This document shows positions 39,755 to 55,474 of a stretch of DNA of 64,000 nucleotides, in pieces. Made by a program: the position numbers and the translations under genes. Below the pieces are notes generated by a model, which did no database searches, was not told the origin of the DNA, and was given only the letters and a program-made list of their open reading frames with translations. Numbering within the stretch: the first letter of the stretch is position 1; each line of letters opens with the position of its first letter. Source of the stretch: Candidatus Microgenomates bacterium (GTDB taxonomy: Bacteria; Patescibacteriota; JACPGU01). The stretch spans positions 73,045 through 137,044 of the forward strand of contig JACPGU010000003.1 in assembly GCA_016188915.1 (NCBI GenBank), read 5' to 3'.

Positions 39755-40975
39755 CTACTTAATTGATAGAAATTCAACAAATCTTTCCTTCAGATATTCC
39801 ATCTGATCATCATTGAGCCCCTGATGACAAGCAACGACAAAGCCATTTTTCATGATATGCTCGGTGTTGGGAAACTCTGTTTTTGTTTCTTTCCTTTGAA
39901 TATTCTTAAAAGCAGGCTGCTTCAAGATGTTTCCGGTGAAGATAGGTCGTGTTTGGATATCGTTATTTTCCAGATACGTGACTAATTCTAGACGCGTGAA
40001 AGGCGCGTTTGGCTTAATAATGAGCGGGAAGGCAATCCAAGCCGTCTCGGTTTTCGGAGTTTGATTTGGCAAAGTGAAATATTTATTATTTTTCTTGAAA
40101 AATTCGTAAAGTGAGTTAAAATTCTTTCTCCTCTTCTCAAGGAAATCAGGCAATCTTTTTAATTGCTCTAAGGCAAAAGCAGCGGAAATCTCAAGGGGCA
40201 GGAAATTGTATCCTATTTCGCTAAAAATAAATTTATTATCGTATGGTATACCGTCTAATTTTGCTCGGAAACGATTTTCTAAAAGTTCAGAATTTGCTTT
40301 TTCGCCGAAAAGCGATGATTGTCTACCCCAGCCACGCATGACCACGAGCTTGTCTACCCACTTTTGGCTATTTACGCAAATCATTCCTCCTCCTCCCGCG
40401 CCGTTTATAATATGAGACCCATAGAAGCTTGTTGTTGAGATGTCAGAATAAGTACCAGAGGGTTTTCCGTTGTATGTTCCGCCGAGCGTGTCGCAAGAAT
40501 CTTCGATGAAAAAGAGATTATGTTTTTTTGCAATCTCGACCAATCTTTCCATATTTGGGATGTTGCCCATCAGAGAAGGAATCATTAATAGTTTTGTCTT
40601 TGAGGTTATAGCTTTTTCGATATCTTCTGGATTGATAATATAGGTATCGGGATCAACATCAATAAAAACAGGAACAATTCCCTTTTGGATGAGCGGCGCC
40701 ACTGTGGTGGCGAAAGTCAGAATAGGGGTAATCGCCTCACTCCCCTTTGGTAGGTCAAGAATTTCCAGAGCTAACAGATTGGCCGATGAACCAGAATTGA
40801 CCATCACACCATATTTTTTACCAAACATTTTGGCTATTTTTTCTTCAAATTCTTTTGTTTTGTCGCCTAGCGCTGTATTGCCTTCCAGAATCTTTACGAC
40901 CGCATCTATTTCTTCTTGCCCATGGACAGAATAACCATACGGGACTCTTATATTCGTTTTTTTTGCTTTTCGCAT
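39755..40975 (-). CDS. rfbH: DegT/DnrJ/EryC1/StrS-family PLP/PMP enzyme, RfbH/DdhC-like (CDP-6-deoxy-D-xylo-4-hexulose 3-dehydrase E1-like)
   Basis: IRVPYGYSVHGQEEIDAVVKIL...VNSGSSANLLALE...TSFYGSHIINGAGGGG closely follows the RfbH pattern. Confidence 0.7.
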   Translation of the reverse strand: MRKAKKTNIRVPYGYSVHGQEEIDAVVKILEGNTALGDKTKEFEEKIAKMFGKKYGVMVNSGSSANLLALEILDLPKGSEAITPILTFATTVAPLIQKGIVPVFIDVDPDTYIINPEDIEKAITSKTKLLMIPSLMGNIPNMERLVEIAKKHNLFFIEDSCDTLGGTYNGKPSGTYSDISTTSFYGSHIINGAGGGGMICVNSQKWVDKLVVMRGWGRQSSLFGEKANSELLENRFRAKLDGIPYDNKFIFSEIGYNFLPLEISAAFALEQLKRLPDFLEKRRKNFNSLYEFFKKNNKYFTLPNQTPKTETAWIAFPLIIKPNAPFTRLELVTYLENNDIQTRPIFTGNILKQPAFKNIQRKETKTEFPNTEHIMKNGFVVACHQGLNDDQMEYLKERFVEFLSIK

Positions 40976-41079
40976 ATTTTTTCGTTATATTTATATGATT
41001 AGCACTCATAATACTAGCATTTTACCTCTCTGGCGTATAGACTATACCCTCGTCAAAGTTTAACCATCTAACTTTTTTT

Positions 41080-42072
41080 ATGAAAATAGATTTTGATATA
41101 ACTGAAGAATGGAACAGATATGTTGCTAAAGGACTAATCAAAAATGTCTTCGAAAGCCATAATGGCAAAATCGAAGCAGGGTTACGATTGGGTCCAAACG
41201 GTCCAGAACAATATGTTGTTGATCTTGCTACCGGCAGAGATATCAGTGAGCCGCCGATATGTAAGCATTGCGATAACGGCATTGATTTTTTATATGATCA
41301 TTTCGGTGGTTTAAAACCCCATACTCCTTCCAAGTCCCCTGGAAAACAAGATGATCTACTCGAAGATGCCGATTCGTGTATCTTTGCATGTCAGAATCAA
41401 AATGTCCCACATTCTGTTTTGAGACGTACACCGCTATTACAAGTAGAACTACCCGGCTCTAAATGGTTTGCATTTCCAAATCTTACCCCGTGGGAATCGC
41501 GCGGGCTTTTATTGTGGGTTCCTGTGGTGCCAGATGGCGTTACGACTACTTTTCCACATAGACCCCAAGGATTAACTCGAGCTAGCATAGAGGATTTTCT
41601 GGAAATATCCCAATCAAGAAAAGATCTAGTCACTTTTTTTAACTCGCTTCACGGAGGTGCTTCCGTTAACCATCTACATTTCCAGAGTGTCTATTCTGAT
41701 CACAAAATGGCCGTTGAATTAGCAGCACTGGTTAAATGGGAAAAATATACTCTAGTTGATGGATATTTTGCTCCTGCTCTCTTTTTCGCGCTAGATTCTG
41801 ATATCGAGAAAATATGGGAACCAATTGAAAAAATTCAACAAGCCGGTATCCCCTATGATCTGATAGCACTTTCGAGCGGCACCTACCTTTTCATCAGAAA
41901 CATTAATCACGAAATTGTCGAAGAATTTCCCGGCAGAGGATTGGGCGGGATCAATTTTGCCGGACTGATTATCACAGCCGATAAAAAAGATTTTACGCGA
42001 GTAACAGAACAGGTAATTCGGTCTGCTTTTGCTAAAGCAACAATTGATCCTCGGAAACTTGATTTTTTGTAG
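41080..42072 (+). CDS. HIT-superfamily GalT-branch (HxHxQ) nucleotidyltransferase/phosphorylase-like protein, VTC2-like
   Basis: VNHLHFQSVY (His-x-His-x-Gln) and FAFPNLTPWESRGLLLWVP resemble the GalT / GDP-L-galactose phosphorylase family. Confidence 0.45.
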   Translation: MKIDFDITEEWNRYVAKGLIKNVFESHNGKIEAGLRLGPNGPEQYVVDLATGRDISEPPICKHCDNGIDFLYDHFGGLKPHTPSKSPGKQDDLLEDADSCIFACQNQNVPHSVLRRTPLLQVELPGSKWFAFPNLTPWESRGLLLWVPVVPDGVTTTFPHRPQGLTRASIEDFLEISQSRKDLVTFFNSLHGGASVNHLHFQSVYSDHKMAVELAALVKWEKYTLVDGYFAPALFFALDSDIEKIWEPIEKIQQAGIPYDLIALSSGTYLFIRNINHEIVEEFPGRGLGGINFAGLIITADKKDFTRVTEQVIRSAFAKATIDPRKLDFL

Positions 42073-42119
42073 CAGGGATGATAGAGTTAAGGTGAAAAAT
42101 CCAATGAGGAGGATGAGAA

Positions 42120-42932
42120 ATGCGACTTTTCGATGAGTATGGGAGGCGAATTCCGCTTCCGTGGATGAGGGTCTATAGTCAGATTTCCAGAAGATATTTT
42201 CAGCTGAACCAACCAATAATTGATTTTAGCGATGTTTATCGTCGCACTGTAAAGTATCTGGGATTGGGAGATCTGCCATTTTCCGACCAGCACTTTAAAA
42301 AAAAGTGTGAAGATTTATTACAGGGCTTACATGAAGACGGTGAGATTAGTGATATCGCCAAAGGTGTTCGTGTGCCATTCCTTTGCCCACCTCTACCGTC
42401 AGACACAAAAAGGGGCGAAGAACTAGTGAAACTAGCTGTAGCTGTCGAGAGATCTTTTAAAGATCGATTCCTCGAGTACGAGTTTTACAATCGCGTAGAG
42501 CCACAATTTCTGGCAGGAGATAATGTGGTGCTCGCGGTCGATTCTCGTTATGAGCGTTTCGAAGAAGCAAGGCGTCAAGGAGTGGTAGTCGGGTGGTACT
42601 TTCCTAACTGCCTTTCTGAATATGATCTAGCTTCACAACGCTCTCAGATGGCGACCTTGCCGATCTTCCATGGACATTTTGTTTTGAGTGGCGGGGTGGA
42701 GACAGCAACAGCACTAATTGGGTGTCCCGATCTACTTATGAATCGAGACGCTTATCCGCATCATCTCTGCCTATCGGCGCTTCAGGATATCGACGAGCGG
42801 TTTTTTTACTCTTTCGAGGCCTATGGGCTTAATCTGGTTTTCAATCGTCGCAGTAATGTACTGACTCCGAAGGTAGCGCAACTCTCGGAACAGTTTGCTG
42901 GTGGGCTCACAGTATTTACATCTTGGGAATAA
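42120..42932 (+). CDS. Hypothetical protein (270 aa)
   Basis: ORF only. RBS ggagga upstream. Co-directional and tightly spaced with its neighbours. Confidence 0.45.
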   Translation: MRLFDEYGRRIPLPWMRVYSQISRRYFQLNQPIIDFSDVYRRTVKYLGLGDLPFSDQHFKKKCEDLLQGLHEDGEISDIAKGVRVPFLCPPLPSDTKRGEELVKLAVAVERSFKDRFLEYEFYNRVEPQFLAGDNVVLAVDSRYERFEEARRQGVVVGWYFPNCLSEYDLASQRSQMATLPIFHGHFVLSGGVETATALIGCPDLLMNRDAYPHHLCLSALQDIDERFFYSFEAYGLNLVFNRRSNVLTPKVAQLSEQFAGGLTVFTSWE

Positions 42933-42943
42933 AGGAGAGACAG

Positions 42944-44071
42944 ATGGAAATAACGAATACGGCTCAATTGACACCGAGCCAGATCAAAGAAAGAGCCAAG
43001 TTGGAACAACGCTGGCCAAGGTCGTACGAAAAGCAACAGCGATTTGATGCCAACGCAGTAAACGGAGTTATCTCTCCAATTCTACGGCTATGTTGGAGTT
43101 TCCTCTGCAATTTTCATTGCGAACACTGTTGCGCCGAACACTATATGGATCGGCATTTAGTAAAAGTGACAGGATCAAAAGAGCAGAGGAGAGAACTCAA
43201 TCTCGATGATGTTCGTGATATCTCTCGTCAAGCAGATGAATATGGGATCTATCGATTTGTTTTGACTGGTGGAGAACCGACAACATGGAAAGACCTTTTT
43301 GCGGTGATCGAAGCGGTAGATCCGGCGAAACATTTAGTAATTCTCGATTCCAATGCATGGCTTCTTGATGAGAAGTTTGCCAGACGGCTCGCAGACGCAG
43401 GTGTTTATAAAATGCAGATTAGTTTGGACAGTTTCATTGAGGCAGAACATGATCTTTTCCGAAGTAAGCCAGGATCATACAGGCGCGTGATGCGAGCCAT
43501 TGAAGCGGTTCAGGAGACAGACATGAAGCTCATGCTTTCTACCTGTCTTATTCGTGGTAGAGCATCTACTCCGGAGTTCGAAAACCTGTGTAGGTTTGCA
43601 ACGGAACAGGGTATCATGCTTTATGTCACTTATGCGAAACCAGTTGGCACGCTCAAGGTCAATCACGAGGATTTCGTCATTACGAAAGAAGATGCCGACC
43701 ATGTGCGGGAGCTTGAGAAGCGCTATAATGTTACGACCCACATGACGCCTGCGTATATGCGAGGACAGGATGGGGTCCTTGGGCACTATGACGGCTGTAT
43801 CACGGTCAAGGGGATTAATACGATTACTTCTACGGGGGAGATCGTTCCTTGCCCCTACATGGACATGTCTATCGGCAATGTCCTTCGTGAGCCACTGGCT
43901 ACAATTCTTGATCGTGGCATGCGCAACAAATTTTTAGGACCGCACCGCAAGGACTGTCTGATCGGTGAAGACGCTGAATTCATAGAACGTCATAATCAAG
44001 CAGTTGAGGGTCGAGTCCAGCTTCCCGCGCCATACGGAGAAGGGTTCTCCGACAAGGACTTAATCGTTTAA
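42944..44071 (+). CDS. Radical SAM enzyme (CxxxCxxC) with C-terminal Cys-containing auxiliary (SPASM/twitch-like) region
   Basis: RBS aaggagaga then ATG 42944. CNFHCEHCC cluster. FVLTGGEPT glycine-rich motif. Late Cys residues (CITVKG...VPCPYMD). Confidence 0.7.
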   Translation: MEITNTAQLTPSQIKERAKLEQRWPRSYEKQQRFDANAVNGVISPILRLCWSFLCNFHCEHCCAEHYMDRHLVKVTGSKEQRRELNLDDVRDISRQADEYGIYRFVLTGGEPTTWKDLFAVIEAVDPAKHLVILDSNAWLLDEKFARRLADAGVYKMQISLDSFIEAEHDLFRSKPGSYRRVMRAIEAVQETDMKLMLSTCLIRGRASTPEFENLCRFATEQGIMLYVTYAKPVGTLKVNHEDFVITKEDADHVRELEKRYNVTTHMTPAYMRGQDGVLGHYDGCITVKGINTITSTGEIVPCPYMDMSIGNVLREPLATILDRGMRNKFLGPHRKDCLIGEDAEFIERHNQAVEGRVQLPAPYGEGFSDKDLIV

Positions 44072-44082
44072 CCTACCAATTT

Positions 44083-44127
44083 AATGGGGCTTTCTGCTTT
44101 GAGCAGTTGAGCCCCATAATTTTTTTC
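44083..44127 (+). terminator. Rho-independent terminator after the radical SAM gene
   Basis: tggggct...agcccca stem followed by taattttttt. Confidence 0.6.
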
Positions 44128-44240
44128 GCTATTTGTGCTAGATTGACACATTGCCATAAAAGAAGTAACCTTATCTCATGCAGATAGCCCCATAATGGCT
44201 CGCAATACTAGGAAATTATGAAAACTATATTTTTTGACGT

Positions 44241-45221
44241 ATGTCTGATTTTTACAAAGACAAGAAAACTATTTCGGTGGTAACTTCCTGCTTTAACGAA
44301 GAAGAGAATGTAGAAGAGTTATTTAGATCTATAGAAAAGGTGTTTCAGGACAATCCGAGATATATGTTTGAAGTTATCTTTATGGATAACGCATCAACGG
44401 ACTCAACGGCTAGTGTTCTTAGAAGGATAGCGAGTAGTGATAAGCGAGTAAAGGTGATTCTTAATGCGAAAAATTTTGGTCATATTCGCTCCCCTTATCA
44501 CGGATTACTTCAAACGAAAGGTGACGCTGTAGTTATGATGGCTTCTGACCTACAGGATCCACCAGAAATGATCGCTGATTTCGTCAAGGCATGGGAGAAT
44601 GGGGCCGATATTGTTGTTGGTATCAAAGATAAGAGCAAAGAAGGTCCGTTAATGTTTCTAGTTAGAAGAGTGTTTTACTACCTGAGCCACAAGATGTCTG
44701 AAACCGATTACATAAAAAACTTTACTGGTTTTGGTTTATACGATAAGAAGTTTGTCGATGTTCTGCGAGGACTAGATGAGCCATACCCTTACTTGCGAGG
44801 GTTAGTAGCGCAATTTGGCTCCAATATAGAAAAAATAAGGTTTACCCAACCGAAAAGAAAGGCAGGGAGGACAAAAAACAATTTCTATACTCTTTACGAT
44901 ATGGCTATGCTTGGTTTCGTGAATCATTCTAAGATCCCCATTCGATTAGCCAGCTTTATCGGCTTTACTGGCGCTTTTATGAGCTTTATGGTTGCAATTG
45001 CCTATTTCGCATACAAGCTAATTTATTGGAAAAGTTTTGAGGCAGGAGTTGCCCCTCTTGTTATTGGGTTTTTCTTTGTTTCGTCCATCCAACTGCTCTT
45101 TATCGGCATTATAGGAGAATATATTTCCTCTATTTACACTCAAGTAAAAAATCAACCACTAGTAATCGAAAAGGAGAGAATTAATTTTGAAGAAACTGAT
45201 ACAAAAACTTTGGGCCAATAG
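44241..45221 (+). CDS. GT2 polyprenyl-phosphate sugar synthase (DPM1/ArnC/GtrB-like) with C-terminal TM helices
   Basis: ISVVTSCFNEEENV, DNASTDSTASVL, DLQDPPE motifs plus two C-terminal TM segments. Confidence 0.75.
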   Translation: MSDFYKDKKTISVVTSCFNEEENVEELFRSIEKVFQDNPRYMFEVIFMDNASTDSTASVLRRIASSDKRVKVILNAKNFGHIRSPYHGLLQTKGDAVVMMASDLQDPPEMIADFVKAWENGADIVVGIKDKSKEGPLMFLVRRVFYYLSHKMSETDYIKNFTGFGLYDKKFVDVLRGLDEPYPYLRGLVAQFGSNIEKIRFTQPKRKAGRTKNNFYTLYDMAMLGFVNHSKIPIRLASFIGFTGAFMSFMVAIAYFAYKLIYWKSFEAGVAPLVIGFFFVSSIQLLFIGIIGEYISSIYTQVKNQPLVIEKERINFEETDTKTLGQ

Positions 45222-45609
45222 GTTTCTTCGTTTTCTGGTTGTTGGTTTTTTTAATACCGTATTTGGGTATTCCATCTTTGCGCTATTTATTTTTGTTGGC
45301 TATAATTATATTGTAGCTGCCATGCTCGGGACTATCGGCGGGATACTGTTTAACTTCAAATCGGTTGGCGTAATTGTATTTAAAAGTCATAATAATGCCC
45401 TGATATTCAGATTTTTTGCGGTTTATGGCGTTGTCTATTTATTCAATCTTACAGGCATCAAAATCTTTGCTGATTATGGAATTGGTAGTTACATTGCGGG
45501 TGCAATTTTGGTCTTACCTGCCGCAGCAATCGGCTATCTCCTCAATAAAAAATTTGTTTTTAATCGGACCCCGATAGACATAAAAGAAGATGAACATATC
45601 TCGGCCTAA
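45187..45609 (+). CDS. GtrA-family membrane protein (polyprenyl-sugar flippase-associated)
   Basis: FLRFLVVGFFNTVFGYSIFALFIF is GtrA-like. 4 TM helices. Confidence 0.7.
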   Translation: MKKLIQKLWANRFLRFLVVGFFNTVFGYSIFALFIFVGYNYIVAAMLGTIGGILFNFKSVGVIVFKSHNNALIFRFFAVYGVVYLFNLTGIKIFADYGIGSYIAGAILVLPAAAIGYLLNKKFVFNRTPIDIKEDEHISA

Positions 45610-45670
45610 CCGCCAATCCATTTGTTCTGTCTGGAAAATGTGCTATTCTAAGTAAAATATATTTTGTTTT

Positions 45671-46441
45671 ATGAAAACAATAATTCTTTGTGGAGGGCAA
45701 GGGACAAGAATGAAAGAGGAGACCGAATTCAAGCCAAAACCATTGGTTCTTATTGGCGGTAAGCCGATTTTGTGGCATATCATGAAAATCTACTCACACT
45801 ACGGTTTTAACGAATTTATCCTGGCATTGGGATATAAGGGCAATATGATTAAGGAATATTTCCTTAATCAAAGGACTTTTTTAAATGACTTCACCCTAAA
45901 TACCAAAGACAATAAGATCACTTTCCACAACAACGATCACGGTGACTTTAAGATTACTTTTATTGACACTGGCCTTGAAACATTGCCTGGAGAACGGATT
46001 TTACGTTGCAAACCATATATCCCAAAGGAGGATACTGATTTTATGGTCACCTACGGCGATGGCGTGTCTGATATTAATATCGACAATTTACTAGAATTTC
46101 ATCGTCGACAAAAAACTATTGGGACAATCATGGGGATAAATCCTCGTTTCAAATTTGGAACAGTATTGGTAAAACCAGACAATAAGATCTCAAAGTTTTC
46201 GGAAAAACCGGTCTTGGAGGATTGGATTAATGGAGGATTTATGGTTTTTAACAAAAAAGTATTTTCCTATATCAATCCCGGTGAGACAGAACATGCCGCG
46301 CTCAAGAGATTGTCGAGAAAGGGTGAACTTTCGTTATTTAGACACAATGGTGCTTGGGCGTGCATGGATACACACAAAGAACATGCGGAACTCAATAAAC
46401 GCTGGCTCAAAGATCCCTTTTGGAGAGTATGGGAAAAATAA
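45671..46441 (+). CDS. rfbF: Glucose-1-phosphate cytidylyltransferase
   Basis: MKTIILCGGQGTRMKEETEFKPKPLVLIGGKPILWHIMKIYSHYGFNEFILALGYKGNMIKEYF is near-canonical RfbF/DdhA. Confidence 0.85.
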   Translation: MKTIILCGGQGTRMKEETEFKPKPLVLIGGKPILWHIMKIYSHYGFNEFILALGYKGNMIKEYFLNQRTFLNDFTLNTKDNKITFHNNDHGDFKITFIDTGLETLPGERILRCKPYIPKEDTDFMVTYGDGVSDINIDNLLEFHRRQKTIGTIMGINPRFKFGTVLVKPDNKISKFSEKPVLEDWINGGFMVFNKKVFSYINPGETEHAALKRLSRKGELSLFRHNGAWACMDTHKEHAELNKRWLKDPFWRVWEK

Positions 46442-46443
46442 TC

Positions 46444-47412
46444 ATGGCTATAATGAAAAATCATTTTGCAAAGAAAAATGTCTTAATTACGGGCGCAACT
46501 GGTTTGGTTGGTGGTCATATCGCAGACAAATTAGTCGAGCAAGGCGCCAACGTGTTCATCACCTATCGTTCCCATAATCCCAAGTCGTTTTTTGTCCAAA
46601 AAGAATTGAGAGACAAAGTTGTGAGCGCTAAGTGTGATATCAAGGATTATCACCGGGTATTTGACGTTGTCTCTAAATATGAGATTGGTTATATATTTCA
46701 TGTCGCCGCCCAACCTATAGTACCCACCGCCTACATCAACCCAAAAGAGGCCCTAGAGGTCAATATATTAGGTACAGTCAATATTTTGGAGGCGACAAGA
46801 CACTGCTCGCAAGTCAAAGGGGTGGTTGTTGCTTCTTCCGATAAGGCGTATGGTAAAAAGTGCGACAACGCTACAGAGGAAGAACCAATGGCAGGAGATC
46901 ATCCTTATGATGTTTCCAAATCATGCGCTGATCTTATAGCTAGAGCGTATGCCAAGACCTACCACCTACCGGTTGCCGTGAGTCGTTTTGGCAACATCTA
47001 TGGACCAGGGGATTTGAATATCAATCGGATTATTCCTGGTATTATGAAAGCGCTTATTCATAATGAGATCATTGAGATTCGCAGCGATGGCTCATTTATC
47101 CGCGACTATGTTTATGTCAAAGATGTGGCCGATGGCTATCTTGCGCTGATGGAAAATATAGAAAAAAATAAAGGAGAAGCCTTTAATTTTAGCAGCGGTC
47201 ACAATTTCTCCGTATTAGAATTAATCGAGAAGATTTCAAAAATTGTTGGCAAAAAATGTAAGTACAAAATATTAGATAATCAAAAAAATGAGATTCCAAA
47301 ACAAAGTTTGAATTTTGATAAAGCGAAAGAGCTTCTTAACTGGAAGCCAAAATATACTTTTGAAGAGGGGATTAGGGAAACATTTGAGTGGTATAAGAAT
47401 TTTTATAAATAA
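46444..47412 (+). CDS. rfbG: CDP-glucose 4,6-dehydratase
   Basis: VLITGATGLVGGHIADKL Rossmann motif. HVAAQPIVPTAYINPKEALEVNILGTVNILEATR matches RfbG/DdhB. ATG 46444 follows the rfbF stop; alternative upstream TTG 46420. Confidence 0.8.
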   Translation: MAIMKNHFAKKNVLITGATGLVGGHIADKLVEQGANVFITYRSHNPKSFFVQKELRDKVVSAKCDIKDYHRVFDVVSKYEIGYIFHVAAQPIVPTAYINPKEALEVNILGTVNILEATRHCSQVKGVVVASSDKAYGKKCDNATEEEPMAGDHPYDVSKSCADLIARAYAKTYHLPVAVSRFGNIYGPGDLNINRIIPGIMKALIHNEIIEIRSDGSFIRDYVYVKDVADGYLALMENIEKNKGEAFNFSSGHNFSVLELIEKISKIVGKKCKYKILDNQKNEIPKQSLNFDKAKELLNWKPKYTFEEGIRETFEWYKNFYK

Positions 47413-47425
47413 CTCAAAAATATTT

Positions 47426-48955
47426 ATGAAAAAAAGTTTCGATTTTGCAAGAAATTTTAATTCATCTGATGGCCAACCCATTTTTATACTAGAAATGGCT
47501 AATAATCATATGGGAGATGTGGATCATGGCCTGAGAATTATTGAGGAAATGAGCAAAGTTACAAAAAAATATGACTTCCTCTTTGCCTTTAAATTTCAAT
47601 ATCGCGATCTTGAAACTTTTATCCACCCTGATTATAAGAAACGAATGGACTTGAAATATGTTAAAAGATTTTCCGAAACTCGTCTTTCCGAAAAAGATTT
47701 TTTGATCCTAAAAGCAGAAGCTCAGAAGCTTGGTTTCATTACTATGTGTACACCGTTTGATGAGGTATCGGTTGATATGGTGGTCAAGCATGATTATGAT
47801 ATTCTAAAAGTGGCGAGTGCATCTTGTGGCGATTGGCCATTATTGGAAAAGATAGTGTCCACCGATAAGCCGATTATTTTCTCGACCGGTGGGGCAAAAC
47901 TTGAAGAAATAGACAAAATTGTCAGTTTCTTAGAGCATAGACAGAAGACCTTTGCTCTGGAGCATTGTGTGGGCGAATACCCAACATTGGCAAGAAATCT
48001 TCAGTTGAATCAGATAGATCTGCTCAGAAGAAGATATCCCAATACGACTGTGGGTTTTTCCACACACGAAGAACCAGACAATGTCGAGGCCGTCAAAATC
48101 GCTATCGCCAAAGGCGCGCGTATTTTCGAAAAACATGTTAGTGTTAGAACTGATAAATACGAGATGAACGCCTATTCGGCTAATCCAAAGCAGGTTGATA
48201 AATGGTTACAGTCGGCCAAAGAGGCATATGAAATGTGCGGAATTGTCGGCGAACGAGCACCTTCATCAGAAAAAGAACTGGCTGATATTCGACAGTTTCA
48301 GCGAGGTGTCTTCGCCAAAGATGTAATCAGAAAAGGAGAGAGAGTCGACACAAAAAATACATTTTTTGCTTTTCCGAATCAACCTGGGCAGATTTTAACC
48401 AATGATTTGTCGAAATATTCTGTTTTTACGGCTTTGAAGCAAATTAAAAAAAATGATCCAGTGATAGATGTCAGCAGAGTGGATACAAGAGATAAGGTAT
48501 ATGAGATAGTAGTCAAATCAAGAAATATGTTGGCGGATGCCAAGATTTCCGTTTCCAATCAGCTTGACTTTGAGATCAGCCATCACTATGGCCTCGATAG
48601 ATTTTACGAAGTGGGGGCGGTTATTATCACTTGCGTAAATCGCGAATACACCAAAAAATTAATTATCGTTTTTCCTGGTCAATCACACCCGTCTCATGGG
48701 CACAAACAAAAAGAAGAGACGTTCCATGTTTTGTCTGGAACTATCATTTTTATACTAGATGGTAAGGAACGAGAAGCAAAAGCTGGAGATGTAGTGGTAG
48801 TAGAAAGAGGTGTTAAACATTCATTTTATTCCAAAGAGGGGAGTATCTTTGAAGAGGTTTCCACTACCCATATCAAAAGCGACTCATTCTATGAAGATGA
48901 AAGTATTTCGAAAAACAAAAACAGAAAAACAGAACTCACTTATTGGGTTGATTAA
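47426..48955 (+). CDS. NeuB-family PEP-dependent (ulosonic) acid synthase with SAF domain and extra C-terminal cupin domain
   Basis: IFILEMANNHMGDVDHG, FITMCTPFDEVSVDMV, IIFSTGGAKLEEID, HCVGEYPT follow the NeuB/PseI pattern. C-terminal VFPGQSHPSHGHKQKEETFHVLSGT is a cupin motif. Confidence 0.65.
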   Translation: MKKSFDFARNFNSSDGQPIFILEMANNHMGDVDHGLRIIEEMSKVTKKYDFLFAFKFQYRDLETFIHPDYKKRMDLKYVKRFSETRLSEKDFLILKAEAQKLGFITMCTPFDEVSVDMVVKHDYDILKVASASCGDWPLLEKIVSTDKPIIFSTGGAKLEEIDKIVSFLEHRQKTFALEHCVGEYPTLARNLQLNQIDLLRRRYPNTTVGFSTHEEPDNVEAVKIAIAKGARIFEKHVSVRTDKYEMNAYSANPKQVDKWLQSAKEAYEMCGIVGERAPSSEKELADIRQFQRGVFAKDVIRKGERVDTKNTFFAFPNQPGQILTNDLSKYSVFTALKQIKKNDPVIDVSRVDTRDKVYEIVVKSRNMLADAKISVSNQLDFEISHHYGLDRFYEVGAVIITCVNREYTKKLIIVFPGQSHPSHGHKQKEETFHVLSGTIIFILDGKEREAKAGDVVVVERGVKHSFYSKEGSIFEEVSTTHIKSDSFYEDESISKNKNRKTELTYWVD

Positions 48956-49022: not shown

Positions 49023-50732
49023 ATGATGCCAACCGCTTTGGAATTAGTAAAAGAAGAAAAAGATCGAGGAGCGCTGCTAACACCCGCGCATCAGGATAGG
49101 ATTTTGTTTGTGGTCCCACCCAACATCACTTACGAGAACTATGTCAACCCACCCAGTAATGTCAAGGGGGTGATGAGTAAATCAAAGCAACTAGGTACGG
49201 TAGTGACCGATATGCCACTAGGTCCGTTGTCGCTTTCTGCCTATGTCAAGGAGCACACCAGAGCCCAGACAGGAATGGTTGATTTCAATGTTGTTTTAAA
49301 CAGGATCCAAGATTTTGATTACGGATCGTTTACGGAGCTTTTTAGGACTGTTTTCTCTGATACAGAGTGGGTAGAATTTAACCCGACCATTATTGGTATA
49401 TCAGCTCTTTTCTCTCCATCCTACCACAACGTCTTGGATATTGCGGAGTGTTGTCGCAAACTCTTCCCGGAATCAATAATTTTGGGAGGTGGTTTTTTGC
49501 CAACCAACGCCTATGAAAGGATTTTCCAGGATTGCCCCCACTTTGACGGACTCTGTTTCGGTGAAGGGGAGCTGGCATTAACACGTCTTGTTAAGGCGGA
49601 AGATAAGAAAAAGCATCTAGAGAGTGATCCTGTATGGATCACACCGAGAAAAGCCAAATGTGAGGCGAAATTTGGCTTCGATTTTGTCTGGAAATTGGAT
49701 GAGATTCCTTTTCTTGACTACCGCCTTGGCGACCCCAAGGGCTACGCACTCAATCCAACTATCGCGGCATATCCTGCAATTCGCAAAACTGGTCATGATT
49801 TTCACGTTATGACGTCGCGAGGATGCGTCTTTCATTGTGCTTTCTGTGCGCAACATACGGTCCATGGCAGGAAAATGCGTGCATATAGTATTGAAAGGAT
49901 CGAACAAGATTTCCGGCGGCTTCAGAATGAATTCGGTGTCCAGACGATTATTGTCGAAGACGACCATTTCATGTGGGATAAAGATCAAGCTCACAGGATA
50001 TTGGATATCATGATAGAGCTACAATTAAGTGCTTTTTTCCCGAATTCGCTAGCGCTCTACGCGCTCGATCGAAAGATGCTGGAGCAGCTGAAGCGAGTCG
50101 GAGTGAATCAGTTGGTCTTGGCGGTGGAGTCGGGCAGTAGGGAAGTATTGAATAAGATTATGCACAAGCCACTGAAGCTGGAAATCATTGCCAGGGTAGC
50201 CAAGGATTGTCGAGAGATCGGCATCTATACTGACTGTAATATTGTCATGGGACTACCGGGCGAGAGAGAGGAACACTTCGCTGAATCAAGGGAGTTTTTG
50301 AAAACCACCTATGCTAATTGGTTTCGGATCAATATCGCAACCCCCATTGTTGGGAGTGAAATGCTTGACATCTGTCTAGCCAATGATTATCTTGAAGGCG
50401 ATTTCAATGGATGTGACTACAAGAGGGCAATCGTCAGTACTCCGGATTTTACTGCCGAAAGAATTCAGAAATTAGCTTATCTCATGAATCTGGAGTTGAA
50501 TTTTGTGTACAATTCCGATTTCCGACTAGGTGATTATCAGACGGCACTCATGGGTTTCGAGAACGCCATCAAGGCAAAAAGTGATCATGCGCTAGCTCAC
50601 TATTATGCAGCGCAATGTCATCTGAATCTTAACAATCCGTCGAAAGCTAATGAGCATTTAAGGATAGCCAAAGAGGCAGCCAAAAATCCTTTTTGGCATG
50701 ATTATGTAGAAATGTTCGGCATTGCGATTTAA
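49023..50732 (+). CDS. B12-binding-domain radical SAM protein (class B radical SAM, methyltransferase-like) with C-terminal TPR-like tail
   Basis: RBS aaggagg. N-terminal B12-binding-like region. TSRGCVFHCAFCAQH CxxxCxxC cluster. Confidence 0.65.
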   Translation: MMPTALELVKEEKDRGALLTPAHQDRILFVVPPNITYENYVNPPSNVKGVMSKSKQLGTVVTDMPLGPLSLSAYVKEHTRAQTGMVDFNVVLNRIQDFDYGSFTELFRTVFSDTEWVEFNPTIIGISALFSPSYHNVLDIAECCRKLFPESIILGGGFLPTNAYERIFQDCPHFDGLCFGEGELALTRLVKAEDKKKHLESDPVWITPRKAKCEAKFGFDFVWKLDEIPFLDYRLGDPKGYALNPTIAAYPAIRKTGHDFHVMTSRGCVFHCAFCAQHTVHGRKMRAYSIERIEQDFRRLQNEFGVQTIIVEDDHFMWDKDQAHRILDIMIELQLSAFFPNSLALYALDRKMLEQLKRVGVNQLVLAVESGSREVLNKIMHKPLKLEIIARVAKDCREIGIYTDCNIVMGLPGEREEHFAESREFLKTTYANWFRINIATPIVGSEMLDICLANDYLEGDFNGCDYKRAIVSTPDFTAERIQKLAYLMNLELNFVYNSDFRLGDYQTALMGFENAIKAKSDHALAHYYAAQCHLNLNNPSKANEHLRIAKEAAKNPFWHDYVEMFGIAI

Positions 50733-50897: not shown

Positions 50898-52085
50898 GTG
50901 AATAGTATCAAAAACGCCAAAAAAAGCAGCGTGAAGAATACAGACACATCCCAAGCGAAGTGCAGGGTTTGTGGTTGGGAATTATTTGGAAAACCGCTTT
51001 TGGAGTACGACAATATGCCTAGCGTCGCACAACATTTGCCAGACACAGATTCTCTCAAAGATGATAATGGTGTTGATCTGAGAGTTTATCAATGCTCTGG
51101 ATGCGGCGTGGTGCAACTAGATAGTAAACCAGTACCATATTATAAAGAGGTGATTCGCGCTTCTGGTTTTTCTCAAGAGATGAAAGATTTTCGGCTGAAG
51201 CAATTCAGGGACTTTGTCGCTAAATTTTCTCTTAAAGATAAAAATATTCTTGAAGTGGGGTGTGGAGGAGGAGAATACCTGTCTCTAATGAAAGAGTGCG
51301 CAGCAAATTCCTCGGGCATAGAATATTCCGATAGTTTAGTAAAAAAATGCGCAGAAGGTGGTCTTAATGTCTCGAAAGGATTTGTTGAGGATAGCAGTTA
51401 TATTGTAAACAATGCTCCCTTTGATGCATTTTTTATGATAAGCTCTCTAGAACATTTGCCAGATCCGAACAAAACACTTCGAGGAATATATAATAATTTG
51501 ACTGATGGGGGGGTGGGGATTGTCGAAGTGCCAAATTTTGATATGATTTTGCGCAACAACCTTTTCTCCGAATTTATGCGTGATCATTTATTTTATTTCA
51601 CCAGAGAAACTCTTGTCGTCTTACTCAATTTGAACGGATTTGAAGTCATTAAGTGTAATGAAGTATGGCATGACTATATTATTTCAGCGATTGTGAGGAA
51701 AAGAAGTAATCTGGATCTTACGCTTTTTTCGGAAAATCAAAATAAACTAAAAAAAGAAGTTAATAACTATATTGGAAAATTCGAAAAAAATAAAGTAGCT
51801 ATCTGGGGCGCTGGTCACCAGGCCTTTGCGATCATGTCATTATTCGATCTAGGAGGGAAGATCAAATACGTTGTTGATTCTGCACCCTTCAAACAAGGGA
51901 AATTTACGCCAGCAACCCATATTCCTATCGTTTCTTCGGATAAACTACATTCGGATCCGGTTAGCGCTATTATTGTTATGGCAGGTAGCTATTCTGATGA
52001 AATCGTCAAAATTGTCAGAGAAAATTATCATCAAGATATGAAAGTAGCTATTTTGAGGGACTTTGGGTTAGAAATAATCTCATAA
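50898..52085 (+). CDS. NDP-hexose C-methyltransferase (TylCIII-like: Zn-binding N-domain, SAM MTase, C-methyltransferase C-domain)
   Basis: CRVCGWEL...YQCSGCGVVQLD Zn-binding domain. VLEVGCGGGEYL SAM motif. C-terminal domain like PF08484. Confidence 0.65.
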   Translation: MNSIKNAKKSSVKNTDTSQAKCRVCGWELFGKPLLEYDNMPSVAQHLPDTDSLKDDNGVDLRVYQCSGCGVVQLDSKPVPYYKEVIRASGFSQEMKDFRLKQFRDFVAKFSLKDKNILEVGCGGGEYLSLMKECAANSSGIEYSDSLVKKCAEGGLNVSKGFVEDSSYIVNNAPFDAFFMISSLEHLPDPNKTLRGIYNNLTDGGVGIVEVPNFDMILRNNLFSEFMRDHLFYFTRETLVVLLNLNGFEVIKCNEVWHDYIISAIVRKRSNLDLTLFSENQNKLKKEVNNYIGKFEKNKVAIWGAGHQAFAIMSLFDLGGKIKYVVDSAPFKQGKFTPATHIPIVSSDKLHSDPVSAIIVMAGSYSDEIVKIVRENYHQDMKVAILRDFGLEIIS

Positions 52086-52089
52086 TACT

Positions 52090-53142
52090 ATGTCTGTACT
52101 ATCAACCGATCTTTGTCACATTCTCGATTTGACTCGTGAGTCATGGGAAGATCTCCGAGGAAAACGGCTATTCATGACCGGGGGAACCGGTTTTTTTGGC
52201 AGTCATCTTTTAGAAAGTTTCGCATTTGCCAATAAAGAGCTAAATCTCAACGCCTCTGTCCTTGTGCTGACTAGGGATATAAAGAATTTTAAAAAAACAG
52301 CGCCTCATTTAGTAAAAAATTCGGCTATCAAATTTCATCTCGGCGATGTGAAGGACTTCAATTTCCCTGATGGCGAATTTTCTCATATAATTCATGCGGC
52401 TGCCACATCAGCTGTTGAAACTTTCAATAGAGAAGATCATCTAGCAAAATTCGATACTCTCGTCGGCGGGACGAGGCATGTACTCGACTTTGCCGTTCAT
52501 TGCAAAGCGCAGAAATTTCTTTTTACCAGTTCCGGAGCTGCTTATGGCAAACAACCAGCCGATATGACCCATATTTCAGAAGAATATCTTGGGGCGCCAA
52601 ACCCTCCAGACCCCAATTCTGCATGGGGCGAAGGTAAGCGGGTGGCTGAATTTCTTTGTGGCTATTATTCAAACAAGTATGGTATTGAGACAAAAATAGT
52701 GCGATGTTTTAGCTTCGTTGGTCCATATTTACCCATAGATATTCATTACGCTATAGGGAATTTTATCCGAGACGCTTTAAAAGGGGGGCCTATTATCGTC
52801 AGTGGCGATGGGTCTCCGGTAAGATCCTATCTCTATTCATCTGACCTTGTGGTCTGGCTCTGGACCATTCTTTTCAAAGGAAAGACCCGCAGAATATATA
52901 ATATTGGTTCAGGAGAGAGTATTACTATCGCGGAATTAGCTAATGTCGTGGCACAATCATTGGGACCCAACATTGAAGTGAAGATAGAAAAAACGCCCGA
53001 CCACAATAAAGTACTGGAAAGATACATTCCGGACATTAGTTTGGTGAAAAAAGAATTAGGGCTGGTACAAACGATAGATCTGAAGACCGCTATTAAAAAA
53101 ACAGCAGAGCACATCCAGAAAAATAATAAGTTATATCACTAA
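52090..53142 (+). CDS. NAD(P)-dependent sugar epimerase/reductase (SDR extended family)
   Basis: LFMTGGTGFFGSHLLE Rossmann. YGKQPADMTH...K catalytic Y-x3-K. Confidence 0.7.
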   Translation: MSVLSTDLCHILDLTRESWEDLRGKRLFMTGGTGFFGSHLLESFAFANKELNLNASVLVLTRDIKNFKKTAPHLVKNSAIKFHLGDVKDFNFPDGEFSHIIHAAATSAVETFNREDHLAKFDTLVGGTRHVLDFAVHCKAQKFLFTSSGAAYGKQPADMTHISEEYLGAPNPPDPNSAWGEGKRVAEFLCGYYSNKYGIETKIVRCFSFVGPYLPIDIHYAIGNFIRDALKGGPIIVSGDGSPVRSYLYSSDLVVWLWTILFKGKTRRIYNIGSGESITIAELANVVAQSLGPNIEVKIEKTPDHNKVLERYIPDISLVKKELGLVQTIDLKTAIKKTAEHIQKNNKLYH

Positions 53143-53151
53143 ATAATTCTT

Positions 53152-54822
53152 ATGAAACTCAGTGATTATGTTGTCAAATTCATAAAAGACGAGGTGGCTG
53201 ATTCGGTTTTTGTATTATCGGGTGGAGGAATAATGCACATTATTGATTCGTTGGGCAAATCAAATATTAACACATACTGCTGTCATCATGAACAAGGGGC
53301 AGTTATAGCCGCCGAAGGATATGGTCGGATAAGAAACCATCCCGGGGTAGCCGTGGTTACGACTGGTCCTGGTGGGACCAACGCCATCACCGGTGTTGCC
53401 GGAGCGTGGCTCGACAGTGTACCGATGATGGTGATATGCGGTCAGGTAAAAACAGATAACATTACCCCTAGAAGTAATGGGATCCCAGCGCAAAGAGCAA
53501 TAGGTCTCCAGGAACTAAATAATACAGATATTGCGCGTCCTATAACTAAATATACCGTAACCGTCACCGATCCAGATTCAATAAAATACCACCTTCAAAA
53601 AGCTCTACATATTGCCATATCTGGACGTCCCGGTCCTGTTTGGATTGAAATACCTCTCGATATTACGACGGCAGAAATTGACCCAGAGAAATTACAAGGA
53701 TATAAACCAAAGCCGTTATCGGAATTTGTCGAACCCAAGATACCGATGGATATTATTATCGAAAAGCTAAAAAAAGCAAAAAAGCCATTATTGATGGCAG
53801 GATATGGTATCCGTCTGGCTGGTGGAGTGCAAGTTTTAGAAAAAATATTGAAAAAATACGAATTTAACGTGGTAACCCCAATTTTTACCGCGGACGATCT
53901 GGTAACACATGATTATGTAAAATATTTAGGTAGGCAAGGCATGCCAGGGAATTATTCCGCAAATTACGCTGTCGACAATTGTGACGTGCTCTTGGTTGTT
54001 GGCGAAAGGATACAATTAACGCAGACATCATTTGACTACAAAAATTTTGCTATCCAGGCGACAAAAATAATGGTTGATATAGACGAATCAGAGCTTTACA
54101 AAAAAACTCTAGCCATAGATATTCCAGTCCATTGTGATGCAAAAATATTTCTTGAAGAGCTTTTGAAATATGACTTTAAGCTAAATAAATGGAATGTGGA
54201 ACGCGACAAAATCAATCTGGCTGATTATTCTTGTGGCAAAAAATATCTCAATGTCTATAAATTTATCGACGAAATCGAAAAATACTCTGGTCTTATGCCT
54301 ATCTCCACGGCCGATGGCATGGCGAGCTTGGTTCCTCACCAAGCTTTGAGAATTCACAAAAGACAACGTTTTATTACAAATGCTGGCCTTGGGCACATGG
54401 GGTCTGGACTTCCAATGGCCATTGGAGCGTGTATTGCCGAAGGTAAAAGACCAACAATTTGTTTCGAGGGAGATGGTTCGATAATGCTTAATATTCAAGA
54501 GCTTCAAACGATTATTTATCACAAACTACCGATTAAGATCTTCATTTTCAGCAACGATGGTTATTATTCAATCAGAGGTACTCATACGCGATTCTTTAAT
54601 AAGGTTTTTGCTGCCGATCCATCCTCTGGTGTGGGGATGCCAGACTTTTCGAAATTAATCCTCGCGTGGGGACTGAAGTATGAAAAAATCGCAAGTGATG
54701 ACGAGCTGATAAAATTAAAATCAGTAATGGATTACGAAGGACCGATTGTTTGTGAATTAATGATATCTCCCAACCAGCCAATGCTACCAAAATGGACAGC
54801 GGGACAATTAAGAGATAAATAA
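53152..54822 (+). CDS. Thiamine-diphosphate-dependent enzyme of the acetolactate-synthase large-subunit family (YerE-like candidate)
   Basis: Three-domain TPP-enzyme layout. C-terminal ThDP-binding GLGHMGSGLPMAIG...FEGDGS...N motif. Confidence 0.7.
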   Translation: MKLSDYVVKFIKDEVADSVFVLSGGGIMHIIDSLGKSNINTYCCHHEQGAVIAAEGYGRIRNHPGVAVVTTGPGGTNAITGVAGAWLDSVPMMVICGQVKTDNITPRSNGIPAQRAIGLQELNNTDIARPITKYTVTVTDPDSIKYHLQKALHIAISGRPGPVWIEIPLDITTAEIDPEKLQGYKPKPLSEFVEPKIPMDIIIEKLKKAKKPLLMAGYGIRLAGGVQVLEKILKKYEFNVVTPIFTADDLVTHDYVKYLGRQGMPGNYSANYAVDNCDVLLVVGERIQLTQTSFDYKNFAIQATKIMVDIDESELYKKTLAIDIPVHCDAKIFLEELLKYDFKLNKWNVERDKINLADYSCGKKYLNVYKFIDEIEKYSGLMPISTADGMASLVPHQALRIHKRQRFITNAGLGHMGSGLPMAIGACIAEGKRPTICFEGDGSIMLNIQELQTIIYHKLPIKIFIFSNDGYYSIRGTHTRFFNKVFAADPSSGVGMPDFSKLILAWGLKYEKIASDDELIKLKSVMDYEGPIVCELMISPNQPMLPKWTAGQLRDK

Positions 54823-54823
54823 T

Positions 54824-55474
54824 ATGAAATATACCAACATTATCTTTGATTTCGATGGGACATTAGTTGATACGAGACCCGGGATAATAAAGGCTTTTTA
54901 TGCTGTCATGACTGATATGGGTATAGAGCCGGCCGATGAAAAGACTATTGGTGAGCTAATAGGAGTCCCATTATCTCAATTTCTTGAAGTTCTCCTAAAA
55001 ACTAATGATGCCAAAATCATTAAGAAAGGGTCAGAATTATTCAAAAAACATTATGATAGAGAATATTCTTCTGACAATATTTTGTATCCCGGTATTCCGG
55101 AGTTACTAGAAAATATTAAGGAAAACTCTGGTAGCAGTTTTGTTGTTAGTAATAAAATAGATGCTTTCTTGAATAAAATATTAGAACAGCATGATATTAG
55201 AAAATATTTCCAATCCACCAAGGGAACTGATGGGACAGGAAGAGGCTCTCAAAAATCTGATTACGTCAGGGATTTGGTTGAAGAAAATAATCTAGATCGA
55301 GCTATAACTGTCATTGTAGGTGATAGGAGAGATGATGTAGTAGCAGGAAAAGACAACCTGATACATACTGTAGGCATAACCTATGGCTATGGCTCAAGGG
55401 AAGAATTAGAGGAAGTGGGAGCTGAGATTGTAGTCAGAGATGTTGAGGGCCTGAAGAGTGTTTTGATGGAATAA
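54824..55474 (+). CDS. HAD-superfamily phosphatase
   Basis: IIFDFDGTLVDT motif I. Later GDRRDDV motif. Confidence 0.7.
   Translation: MKYTNIIFDFDGTLVDTRPGIIKAFYAVMTDMGIEPADEKTIGELIGVPLSQFLEVLLKTNDAKIIKKGSELFKKHYDREYSSDNILYPGIPELLENIKENSGSSFVVSNKIDAFLNKILEQHDIRKYFQSTKGTDGTGRGSQKSDYVRDLVEENNLDRAITVIVGDRRDDVVAGKDNLIHTVGITYGYGSREELEEVGAEIVVRDVEGLKSVLME

Follow-up and report, generated by a model that had tools for sequence, protein, structure and literature searches.

Acyl branching of cytidine diphosphate (CDP)-activated ketosugars by thiamine diphosphate (ThDP)-dependent enzymes is already known, and a 2025 review reports that in silico searches have turned up more than 200 clusters with YerE-like enzymes, most of which lack a known product. 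For yersiniose A (DdhA-D, YerE and YerF; Yersinia pseudotuberculosis), one locus encodes a cytidylyltransferase, a 4,6-dehydratase, a pyridoxamine 5′-phosphate (PMP)-dependent 3-dehydrase, the ThDP enzyme and a short-chain dehydrogenase/reductase (SDR). The erwiniose (ErwE/ErwF/ErwI/ErwJ), caryophyllose (MMAR_2332/MMAR_2331) and gastriose (MyGE/MygI/MygF) systems, which also supply surface-glycan sugars, combine the genes for CDP-4-keto-3,6-dideoxyglucose with a YerE-like ThDP enzyme, a maker of a 2-keto-3-deoxy-4-hydroxy acid and an SDR. There, the 4-hydroxy-2-keto acid stems from an aldolase; the YerE-like enzyme (ErwE, MMAR_2332 or MyGE) decarboxylates it and transfers the remainder to CDP-4-keto-3,6-dideoxyglucose, and a YerF-like reductase completes the branch (Steitz et al., PMC9306805). 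JanthE of Janthinobacterium sp. HH01 (Protein Data Bank (PDB) entry 8RPH), an orphan YerE-like enzyme whose physiological donor is not known, takes pyruvate and C4–C6 keto acids in vitro (PMC12188165); it accepts ketone acceptors and long keto-acid donors. Here we analyze a 64-kb stretch of DNA (the window) from Candidatus Microgenomates bacterium, a member of the Patescibacteria within the candidate phyla radiation (CPR), in which the interval 39755–55474 pairs such an enzyme with a fusion of a NeuB-family synthase and a cupin isomerase. This interval is one copy of a widely distributed, conserved and probably horizontally spread cassette.

The interval lies within a surface-glycan locus that spans ~28.1–57.4 kb of the window. 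Between 41080 and 57449, the + strand carries thirteen open reading frames (ORFs) in tandem, none separated from the next by more than 170 bp, and a DegT-family gene (39755–40975, − strand) stands in divergent orientation beside this operon; coordinates below refer to the + strand unless marked otherwise. The arrangement is not due to chance: the genes form one tandem run, and dozens of unrelated genomes repeat the set in the same order. A preliminary description of the interval had named seven enzymes (RfbF, RfbG, an RfbH/E1-like PMP enzyme, a ThDP-dependent enzyme, an SDR reductase, a C-methyltransferase and a B12-binding radical S-adenosylmethionine (SAM) enzyme), all of which were recovered with strong family scores, at the coordinates given below, by Pfam and NCBIfam profile searches of the window. 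It had not listed the NeuB–cupin fusion, a HAD phosphatase, a radical SAM/SPASM enzyme, a HIT-type protein, a 270-residue protein, a family 2 glycosyltransferase (GT2), a GtrA protein and a candidate GT-C glycosyltransferase. The linkage between the NeuB–cupin and ThDP genes, the breadth of their distribution and a clade of E1-like enzymes devoid of an iron–sulfur cluster are the most interesting content beyond that description. The probable product of the 16-kb operon is a cell-surface sugar of unusual size that is both carbon-branched and methylated.

The ThDP enzyme (53152–54822) comprises the TPP_enzyme_N, TPP_enzyme_M and TPP_enzyme_C domains with HEQ and GDG motifs, the latter being canonical whereas JanthE has CDG. 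As had been suggested, it groups with YerE-like carboligases and not with acetohydroxyacid synthases (AHAS): it scores 343 bits against JanthE and 253 bits against 5AHK, reportedly PpYerE (Hampel et al. 2018), as compared with 195–213 bits against the plant, yeast and Escherichia coli AHAS structures. JanthE is also the closest solved relative of the ThDP enzyme of a related Sulfurimicrobium locus (L075), with 417 bits versus 277 bits for AHAS. The top NCBIfam names for the window protein are acetolactate synthase large subunits, which would suit a genuine AHAS of branched-chain amino acid synthesis that merely adjoins the sugar genes. That reading is effectively refuted, as the protein falls below every NCBIfam AHAS cut-off (339 bits versus 538 for TIGR00118, the others being further out of reach), neither ilvN nor ilvC was found in the window and the gene is embedded in a conserved sugar operon; we rejected it on the cut-offs and the PDB scores. 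A carboligase role is predicted from these matches, and the genomic context of the gene consists of CDP-4-keto-3,6-dideoxyhexose genes.

In our view, the key gene of the locus is the one at 47426–48955, which encodes a NeuB-family phosphoenolpyruvate (PEP)-dependent synthase (Pfam NeuB, PF03102, 145 bits, 4e-42) fused to a cupin of the D-lyxose/D-mannose-isomerase type (Cupin_2, 6e-14). The NeuB part matches the structural-genomics entry 3G8R, annotated as "SpsE", with 347 bits over residues 16–348, and Neisseria NeuB with 85 bits. Residues H214, E215 and H237, in the metal-binding histidine region, are invariant in 22 homologues. Against the NCBIfam equivalogs, the fusion scores 134 bits for NeuB (cut-off 400) and 130 bits for PseI (cut-off 340), and its sequence places it among the NeuB-family PEP-condensing synthases, though not as a synthase of sialic or pseudaminic acid itself. 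A profile built from the last 165 residues aligns over the whole domain with the Bacillus subtilis D-lyxose ketol-isomerase (2Y0O, E 4e-13) and with a D-lyxose/D-mannose isomerase (7NZO, E 2.6e-11). In the conserved HxH...E...H metal site, H77, H82, E87 and H121 are invariant. NeuB enzymes prefer manno-type aldoses. The fusion of a ketose-to-aldose isomerase to PEP condensation makes chemical sense, as the predicted isomerization, an unfavorable one, would be pulled forward by the irreversible condensation.

The locus resembles those of NeuB, PseI, LegI and KDN-9-P synthase in that a NeuB-family TIM barrel with metal-binding histidines is encoded with a phosphatase and a nucleoside diphosphate (NDP)-hexose 4,6-dehydratase. 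It differs from these nonulosonic acid and KDN systems by the lyxose-isomerase-type cupin and the pairing with a ThDP enzyme; no CMP-synthetase, N-acetyltransferase or hydrolyzing 2-epimerase was found. The window phosphatase (54824–55474) is a HAD protein resembling phosphoglycolate phosphatase (Pfam HAD_2, 6e-28).

To follow the cassette across genomes, we used the NeuB–cupin fusion as a query against one genome per GTDB species, which yielded at least 565 relatives. The best 80 of these are full-length NeuB–cupin fusions with 51–70% identity, from Patescibacteria, Nitrospirota, Desulfobacterota, Omnitrophota, Verrucomicrobiota and Bacteroidota. The same 80 include a Dolichospermum cyanobacterium, archaea (Methanoperedens and Nanoarchaeia), a Stenotrophomonas metagenome-assembled genome (MAG) and, among cultured organisms, Pseudomonas (P. 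capeferrum WCS358 and others) and Pseudoxanthomonas jiangsuensis. The best 120 database matches of the fusion, mostly from Patescibacteria, are 58–83% identical to it; across phyla, the identity is about 50–83%. The combination of genes named in the preliminary description belongs to this widely distributed cassette, which has no known product, and is not a one-off.

Co-occurrence was counted by comparing the window proteins with all ORFs of the 49 GTDB loci that retain at least 6 kb on both sides of the NeuB–cupin gene. A ThDP homologue is present in 48 of the 49 loci, followed by the 4,6-dehydratase (43/49), the E1-type DegT protein (41/49), a phosphatase (41/49), the cytidylyltransferase (39/49), the radical SAM/SPASM enzyme (33/49), a NUDIX or HIT-type protein (26/49), the TcaB9-type C-methyltransferase (21/49) and the B12 radical SAM enzyme (13/49). 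The usual order is cytidylyltransferase, dehydratase, E1, NeuB–cupin, (phosphatase), ThDP enzyme, and the ThDP gene starts 0–950 bp past the NeuB–cupin gene in most loci, often with the phosphatase gene alone in between. The Sulfurimicrobium locus L075 contains all elements of the window, including the 270-residue protein. The phosphatase slot is filled by three different families, NT5C (24 loci), HAD (14) and Cof (3), which argues that the activity itself is selected rather than one protein and suggests, as judged from the families, that phosphatase activity is what the cassette conserves. A metagenome scan with the ThDP enzyme returned five loci, two of them with enough flanking sequence and both positive for NeuB–cupin, which is too few for a reverse co-occurrence estimate. 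A tblastn search of the PLSDB plasmids with the NeuB–cupin fusion gave no match. In a Nitrospirae MAG (L006; 1–1107 and 6475–19304), the cassette stands directly beside flagellin, csrA and fliW genes, which suggests that flagellin glycosylation rather than an O-antigen is its target in that lineage.

Since the NeuB–cupin and phosphatase genes are those most tightly linked to the ThDP gene, we propose that the ThDP enzyme uses a long α-keto acid as its donor. The product of a NeuB-type condensation shares the 2-keto-3-deoxy-4-hydroxy pattern of the aldolase-made donors of the erwiniose, caryophyllose and gastriose systems. Neither an aldolase nor a CMP-ulosonate synthetase was found in the window or in four related loci annotated with Pfam, and this, together with the matching pattern, is why we assign the making of the donor to the NeuB–cupin fusion and the phosphatase. 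Whether the NeuB product is indeed the donor we regard as evenly balanced.

The preliminary description had envisaged, instead, a two-carbon branch as in yersiniose with added methyl groups, an account that overlooks the NeuB–cupin fusion and the phosphatase. On a model of this kind, the ThDP enzyme would use pyruvate, as does YerE, the founding member of the family, and add an acetyl branch to give a yersiniose-like sugar that is further C-methylated, whereas the NeuB–cupin fusion and phosphatase would serve a separate acid, for example a KDN-like one, of the same glycan. JanthE, the closest solved relative, accepts pyruvate (PMC12188165), and additional carbons might come from the C-methyltransferase and the B12 radical SAM enzyme. 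However, in nearly all of the 49 loci, which span many phyla, nothing or only the phosphatase gene stands between the NeuB–cupin and ThDP genes; a free ulosonic acid would call for the CMP-ulosonate synthetase that was not found in the window or the related loci; and true yersiniose clusters, for example in Pseudomonas WCS417, are made up of ddhA-D together with yerE and yerF, a NeuB gene not being mentioned. We therefore retain the pyruvate route as a rival that we deem unlikely, and the ThDP donor in the window is probably not pyruvate, unlike in yersiniose A. The window departs from the yersiniose A system in other respects as well: it has no E3 (DdhD), its E1-like protein lacks the iron–sulfur cysteines, its SDR lacks the catalytic tyrosine, and the NeuB–cupin fusion, the phosphatase and the methylating enzymes are extra.

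The acceptor for a NeuB-made donor would come from the CDP-sugar genes. The window encodes a protein like the glucose-1-phosphate cytidylyltransferase RfbF (45671–46441; TIGR02623, 268 bits over the full length, cut-off 300), an SDR like the CDP-glucose 4,6-dehydratase RfbG with an intact YxxxK motif (PYDVSK) (46420–47412; TIGR02622, 222 bits, cut-off 278) and, on the − strand at 39755–40975, an E1/RfbH-like PMP-dependent sugar 3-dehydrase without a [2Fe-2S] site (Pfam DegT, E 1e-81; NCBIfam RfbH, 360 bits, cut-off 423). The RfbF, RfbG and RfbH assignments made earlier thus hold as best matches, but all three proteins stay under their equivalog cut-offs. The positional orthologues in P. capeferrum WCS358 (L084) pass these cut-offs with 476 bits (RfbF), 483 bits (RfbG) and 739 bits (RfbH), and the E1 homologues at all other cassette loci keep His220 and the four cluster cysteines. 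On these grounds, the acceptor side of the cassette is predicted to be the canonical CDP-4-keto-3,6-dideoxyglucose route, of which the window carries a divergent version.

The E1-like protein groups with 3-dehydrases rather than with aminotransferases, in agreement with the preliminary description: it scores 264 bits against E1 (3BCX/3BB8), 201 bits against ColD and at most 174 bits against aminotransferases. Its SFYGSH segment aligns with SFYPAH220 of E1, which places a histidine at the catalytic position otherwise held by the lysine that binds pyridoxal phosphate (PLP); the position is fixed by the deposited H220K mutant of E1 (3BB8). An aminotransferase reading was ruled out by this His-for-Lys replacement and by the grouping with E1 and ColD. 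The DegT fold and the replacement of the PLP lysine by histidine are common to E1 (DdhC/AscC), ColD, SpnQ and the window protein, with E1 being the best match. E1 binds its [2Fe-2S] cluster through C193-X57-C251-X1-C253-X7-C261, positions that agree with the 3BCX sequence. In the window protein, Cys251, Cys253 and Cys261 are replaced by Ser, Gly and Leu, respectively, so that three of the four cysteines are lost and the equivalent of C193 alone is kept; the cluster region reads DCYCAPGCDNTC in E1 and QSSLFGEKANSELL in the window protein. The same three cysteines are missing in ColD and SpnQ, yet the sequence of the window protein is closer to E1. It falls within a very large clade of ~407-residue proteins, so far seen in Patescibacteria, and all of its best 120 matches (120/120) have His220 and no cysteine in the cluster region.

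The loss of these cysteines explains why, as had been observed, no E3 partner is apparent: an E3/DdhD-type flavin/[2Fe-2S] reductase was not found among the window ORFs of at least 150 residues that were scanned, or in the four Pfam-annotated related loci, and such a partner would be pointless without a cluster and need not be encoded elsewhere. By analogy, the cluster-less enzyme presumably works like ColD, with PMP formed by transamination, or like SpnQ, with general cellular reductants. Clade relatives at two further loci (L089, 8001–9224; L090, 8001–9227) adjoin split transketolase genes (Transketolase_N and Transket_pyr/C), and their neighbors include an NTP-transferase, a 4,6-dehydratase, an SDR and sometimes a TylC3-type C-methyltransferase; these loci would represent a second, transketolase-based sugar-branching cassette in CPR bacteria. 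As this is another ThDP-dependent sugar-branching context, the clade would still supply a 4-keto-deoxysugar.

Taken together, these families and linkages suggest the following pathway. The RfbF- and RfbG-like enzymes would convert glucose-1-phosphate to CDP-4-keto-6-deoxyglucose; the families are those of the best profile matches, and the substrate is a predicted one. The E1-like PMP enzyme would then take off the 3-hydroxyl group to give CDP-4-keto-3,6-dideoxyhexose, putatively without an iron–sulfur cluster or E3. On the donor side, domain families and gene linkage point to a phosphatase and a cupin isomerase domain that would supply a manno- or lyxo-type aldose from a ketose or ketose phosphate, and to a NeuB domain that would condense this aldose with PEP to form a 3-deoxy-2-ulosonic acid, an α-keto acid. 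The ThDP enzyme would decarboxylate the ulosonic acid and attach the resulting acyl-anion equivalent at the C4 keto group of the CDP-sugar. The product might then be tailored by enzymes that are recognized by architecture: the C-methyltransferase, the two radical SAM enzymes (B12-binding and SPASM-type) and the 270-residue partner of the latter.

We consider the core of this scheme, YerE-type branching of a CDP-4-keto-3,6-dideoxyhexose, to be quite probable. That the cassette product is a CDP-activated 3,6-dideoxyhexose bearing a long, sugar-derived acyl branch at C4 has, in our estimate, an even chance of being correct. Carried to its conclusion, the scheme would predict a new class of higher-carbon sugars of ~C13–C15, in which two whole sugars are joined by a C–C bond upon ThDP-dependent decarboxylative ligation of a 3-deoxy-ulosonic acid onto CDP-4-keto-3,6-dideoxyhexose. 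Such sugars would then be common on the cell surface in no fewer than 80 genomes at the species level, and probably in several hundred, with carriers in Patescibacteria, Nitrospirota, Desulfobacterota, Pseudomonas and archaea; we consider this extension less likely than not. Compared with the erwiniose, caryophyllose and gastriose systems, a PEP-dependent NeuB–cupin fusion and a phosphatase would replace the class II pyruvate aldolase as the source of the keto acid, with a full C8–C9 sugar acid as donor instead of a C5–C8 acid, and the window adds a C-methyltransferase and two radical SAM enzymes.

Several points weigh against the long-donor scheme. All of its substrates are ones that we infer, and the cassette copies are without a known product. 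As the window RfbF, RfbG and RfbH homologues are best matches that remain under the equivalog cut-offs, both the nucleotide and the hexose could differ. Ulosonic acids are mostly pyranoses, and use as a ThDP donor needs the open-chain form. The window SDR is devoid of the catalytic tyrosine, which leaves the branching step with no clear YerF-type reductase. The in vitro donors of JanthE, pyruvate and C4–C6 keto acids, allow for a short donor (PMC12188165). Finally, candidates for nucleotide-sugar cleavage (NUDIX or HIT) at 26 of the 49 loci would fit the release of an aldose from a CDP-sugar.

The window candidate for such a cleavage is a 330-residue protein (41080–42072) with an NHLHFQ motif and a weak DUF4922 match, which belongs to branch III of the HIT superfamily (Apa2/GDPGP1/VTC2-like) and whose homologues carry GDPGP1_N and GDPGP1_C domains. 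Sequence searches against the PDB gave no match for it, and the fold search alone succeeded: the AlphaFold2 (AF2) model has a mean predicted local distance difference test (pLDDT) score of 89, and its best Foldseek match is the yeast Ap4A phosphorylase Apa2 (4I5T, E 1e-8, template modeling (TM) score 0.55–0.61). The model supports a nucleotide phosphorylase or transferase of branch III, which might act as an NDP-sugar phosphorylase or a nucleotidyl transferase. The notion that NUDIX and HIT proteins are simple substitutes for each other was dropped, as locus L087 carries both.

With this protein, the locus could also follow the logic of legionaminic and pseudaminic acid synthesis, in which the HIT or NUDIX protein would cleave a CDP-deoxyhexose to the sugar-1-phosphate, a dephosphorylation would follow, the cupin would isomerize or epimerize the sugar, and the NeuB domain would add PEP to give a deoxy-nonulosonic acid; this acid would be either the final, ThDP-modified sugar or the donor for a second CDP-keto sugar. 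NeuB-family enzymes such as PseI and LegI typically use 6-deoxyhexoses derived from NDP-sugars, and besides the HIT protein of the window, NUDIX proteins occur in many related loci, the phosphatase is nearly always present and PfkB or AAA_33 kinases accompany some loci. Set against this, NUDIX or HIT genes are found at only 26 of the 49 loci, whereas the phosphatase and the cupin are near-universal, a cupin of the D-lyxose-isomerase type suggests a ketose precursor and not a released aldose, and the CMP-activating enzyme was not found in the window or the related loci; delivery by GT2 and GtrA requires a nucleotide-activated end product. We judge this nonulosonic route to be unlikely, slightly more so than the pyruvate route.

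Besides the enzymes proposed to attach an ulosonic acid to a CDP-keto sugar, the operon encodes several that might act on the branched product. An extended SDR is encoded at 52090–53142 (Pfam Epimerase, 3e-37; best PDB match, a UDP-glucuronate decarboxylase, 113 bits). The preliminary description had called it a YerF-like reductase; the SDR itself is present with its GGTGFFG motif and its lysine, but AWGEGKR stands in place of YxxxK, with a tryptophan (W179) for the catalytic tyrosine. Among 33 cassette homologues, this position is W or L in 15, which are close relatives, and Y in 18, the tyrosine being found in more remote members of the set (Pseudomonas, Dolichospermum). Judged by the residue triad, it is doubtful that the window SDR acts as a plain YerF-type reductase. 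In a related protein of 863 residues (P0037; L002, 10001–12592), an SDR orthologue with 64% identity is fused N-terminally to the NeuB–cupin, which ties together the two halves of the operon.

The protein at 50898–52085 is an NDP-ketosugar C-methyltransferase of the TcaB9/TylC3/KijD1 type (Methyltransf_13/23/14), with an N-terminal zinc ribbon of four cysteines (CRVC...CSGC), and the earlier TylCIII-like assignment stands. TcaB9 is its best PDB match (83 bits), and the sugar 3-C-methyltransferases 5T6B and 4RV9 (KijD1-type) match too; TcaB9-type relatives methylate the carbon adjoining the 4-keto group. The radical SAM enzyme at 49023–50732 has the architecture that had been described for it, a B12-binding domain (PF02310, 40 bits, cut-off 32, 3e-10) and a Radical_SAM domain (PF04055, 72 bits, 8e-20) with the CxxxCxxC core CVFHCAFC at residue 268, followed by a C-terminal TPR (TPR_19). 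The methylation of unactivated carbons that had been ascribed to it is not settled by family scores: the nearest NCBIfam models, the Sden_1168 P-methyltransferase (127 bits) and HpnJ (104 bits), are both far under cut-off, and methylation is only one possibility on this basis, HpnJ-like chemistry being another. Genes of the SAM cycle lie inside some related sugar clusters (L004/L005, 7674–9886; L088, 4626–6925), with an S-adenosylhomocysteine hydrolase and a PfkB kinase in one such cluster and a SAM synthetase and a methylenetetrahydrofolate reductase in another, which is consistent with a heavy methylation load.

A second radical SAM enzyme, with a (partial) SPASM domain, is encoded at 42923–44071 (Radical_SAM, 3e-19; SPASM, 5e-5; CNFHCEHC at residue 62). 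Its partner is the 270-residue protein at 42120–42932, of no recognized family: it gave no match in Pfam (E ≤ 1), in NCBIfam or, with a five-sequence profile, in the PDB, and a single-sequence AF2 model was uninformative (pLDDT 32). Homologues of this protein always adjoin a particular subtype of the radical SAM/SPASM enzyme (L075, L057 and L087), and the two are fused in a 630-residue ORF of an uncultured proteobacterium MAG (L073, 16267–18159).

The operon also encodes candidates for delivery of the sugar. The GT2 protein at 44241–45221 (Glycos_transf_2, 4e-26), with two C-terminal transmembrane segments, resembles the polyprenyl-phosphate sugar synthases PgfS, ArnC and GtrB (PgfS, 173 bits, and ArnC-type, 106 bits, both below cut-offs), and the small GtrA-family protein at 45187–45609 (GtrA_DPMS_TM, 8e-13), with four transmembrane segments, is its putative flippase partner; the pair recurs in L002, L011, L087 and other loci. 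A 652-residue polytopic membrane protein (37778–39736), with ~11 hydrophobic segments on the Kyte–Doolittle scale and no Pfam or NCBIfam match, is a candidate GT-C-type glycosyltransferase that would take the lipid-linked sugar, by analogy with the MptA_B-family GT-C found at the equivalent place in L002 and L087. The GtrA/GtrB/GtrV, ArnC/ArnT and PgfS systems likewise combine a GT2 that has transmembrane helices at its C terminus with a protein of the GtrA family and a large polytopic membrane protein; the window differs from them in that the donor would be a CDP-sugar and the GT-C candidate has no recognizable family. By analogy with these systems, the GT2 would load the sugar on polyprenyl phosphate, GtrA would flip it, and the GT-C-like protein would transfer it to the polymer that the upstream Bac_transf and Wzm/Wzt proteins synthesize and export. 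The upstream surface-glycan genes (28145–37815) encode, besides this Bac_transf initiating transferase and the Wzm/Wzt ABC exporter, a Wzy_C/O-antigen-ligase-like protein with TPR, a Methyltransf_24 protein and a 1294-residue GT4+WbsX protein, and a bifunctional GT2+GT4 glycosyltransferase closes the operon (55500–57449; Glycos_transf_2, 5e-27; Glycos_transf_1, 2e-44).

If the scheme is correct, the "unifying scheme" for acyl-branched sugars would gain a new and much more widespread donor-forming module, and a family of very large C–C-linked sugars that nobody has isolated would be predicted. For JanthE and other orphan YerE-like enzymes, which attract interest as biocatalysts for tertiary alcohols, it would also offer a physiological donor that can be put to the test. 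Krug et al. (Angew. Chem. 2024, e202403535) reportedly surveyed over 200 clusters with YerE-like enzymes; in our literature search, which this survey lies outside, we found no paper linking a NeuB-family synthase to YerE-type or ThDP-branching pathways. P. capeferrum WCS358 is a cultured and genetically tractable carrier of a minimal cassette, and its O-antigen, the composition of which is called unresolved in the literature, elicits induced systemic resistance in plants. The cluster-less E1-like clade, in turn, bears on E3-free deoxysugar synthesis in the reduced genomes of Patescibacteria.

Outside the glycan operon, an Rfam scan of the window returned a single tRNA. Directly after the operon, an ORF at 57459–58157 resembles REP-associated tyrosine transposases (Y1_Tnp; NCBIfam, 52 bits, cut-off 80); the alanyl-tRNA synthetase ORF (58135–60228) begins inside it. 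Three ORFs are very large: 9625–13794 (−, 1389 residues), a probable surface protein that contains the domains PKD, CarboxypepD_reg and CHB_HEX_C, and 21249–24941 (+, 1230 residues) and 14181–16028 (−, 615 residues), for which no Pfam family was found at E ≤ 1e-5. Two stretches, 25778–27892 (−) and 60001–62000, have a G+C content of 0.51–0.53 against a background of ~0.40; the first is a gene for a PKD/NHL-repeat surface protein, the second corresponds to a 433-residue ORF (60302–61603, −) with no family match, and both may have been acquired horizontally.

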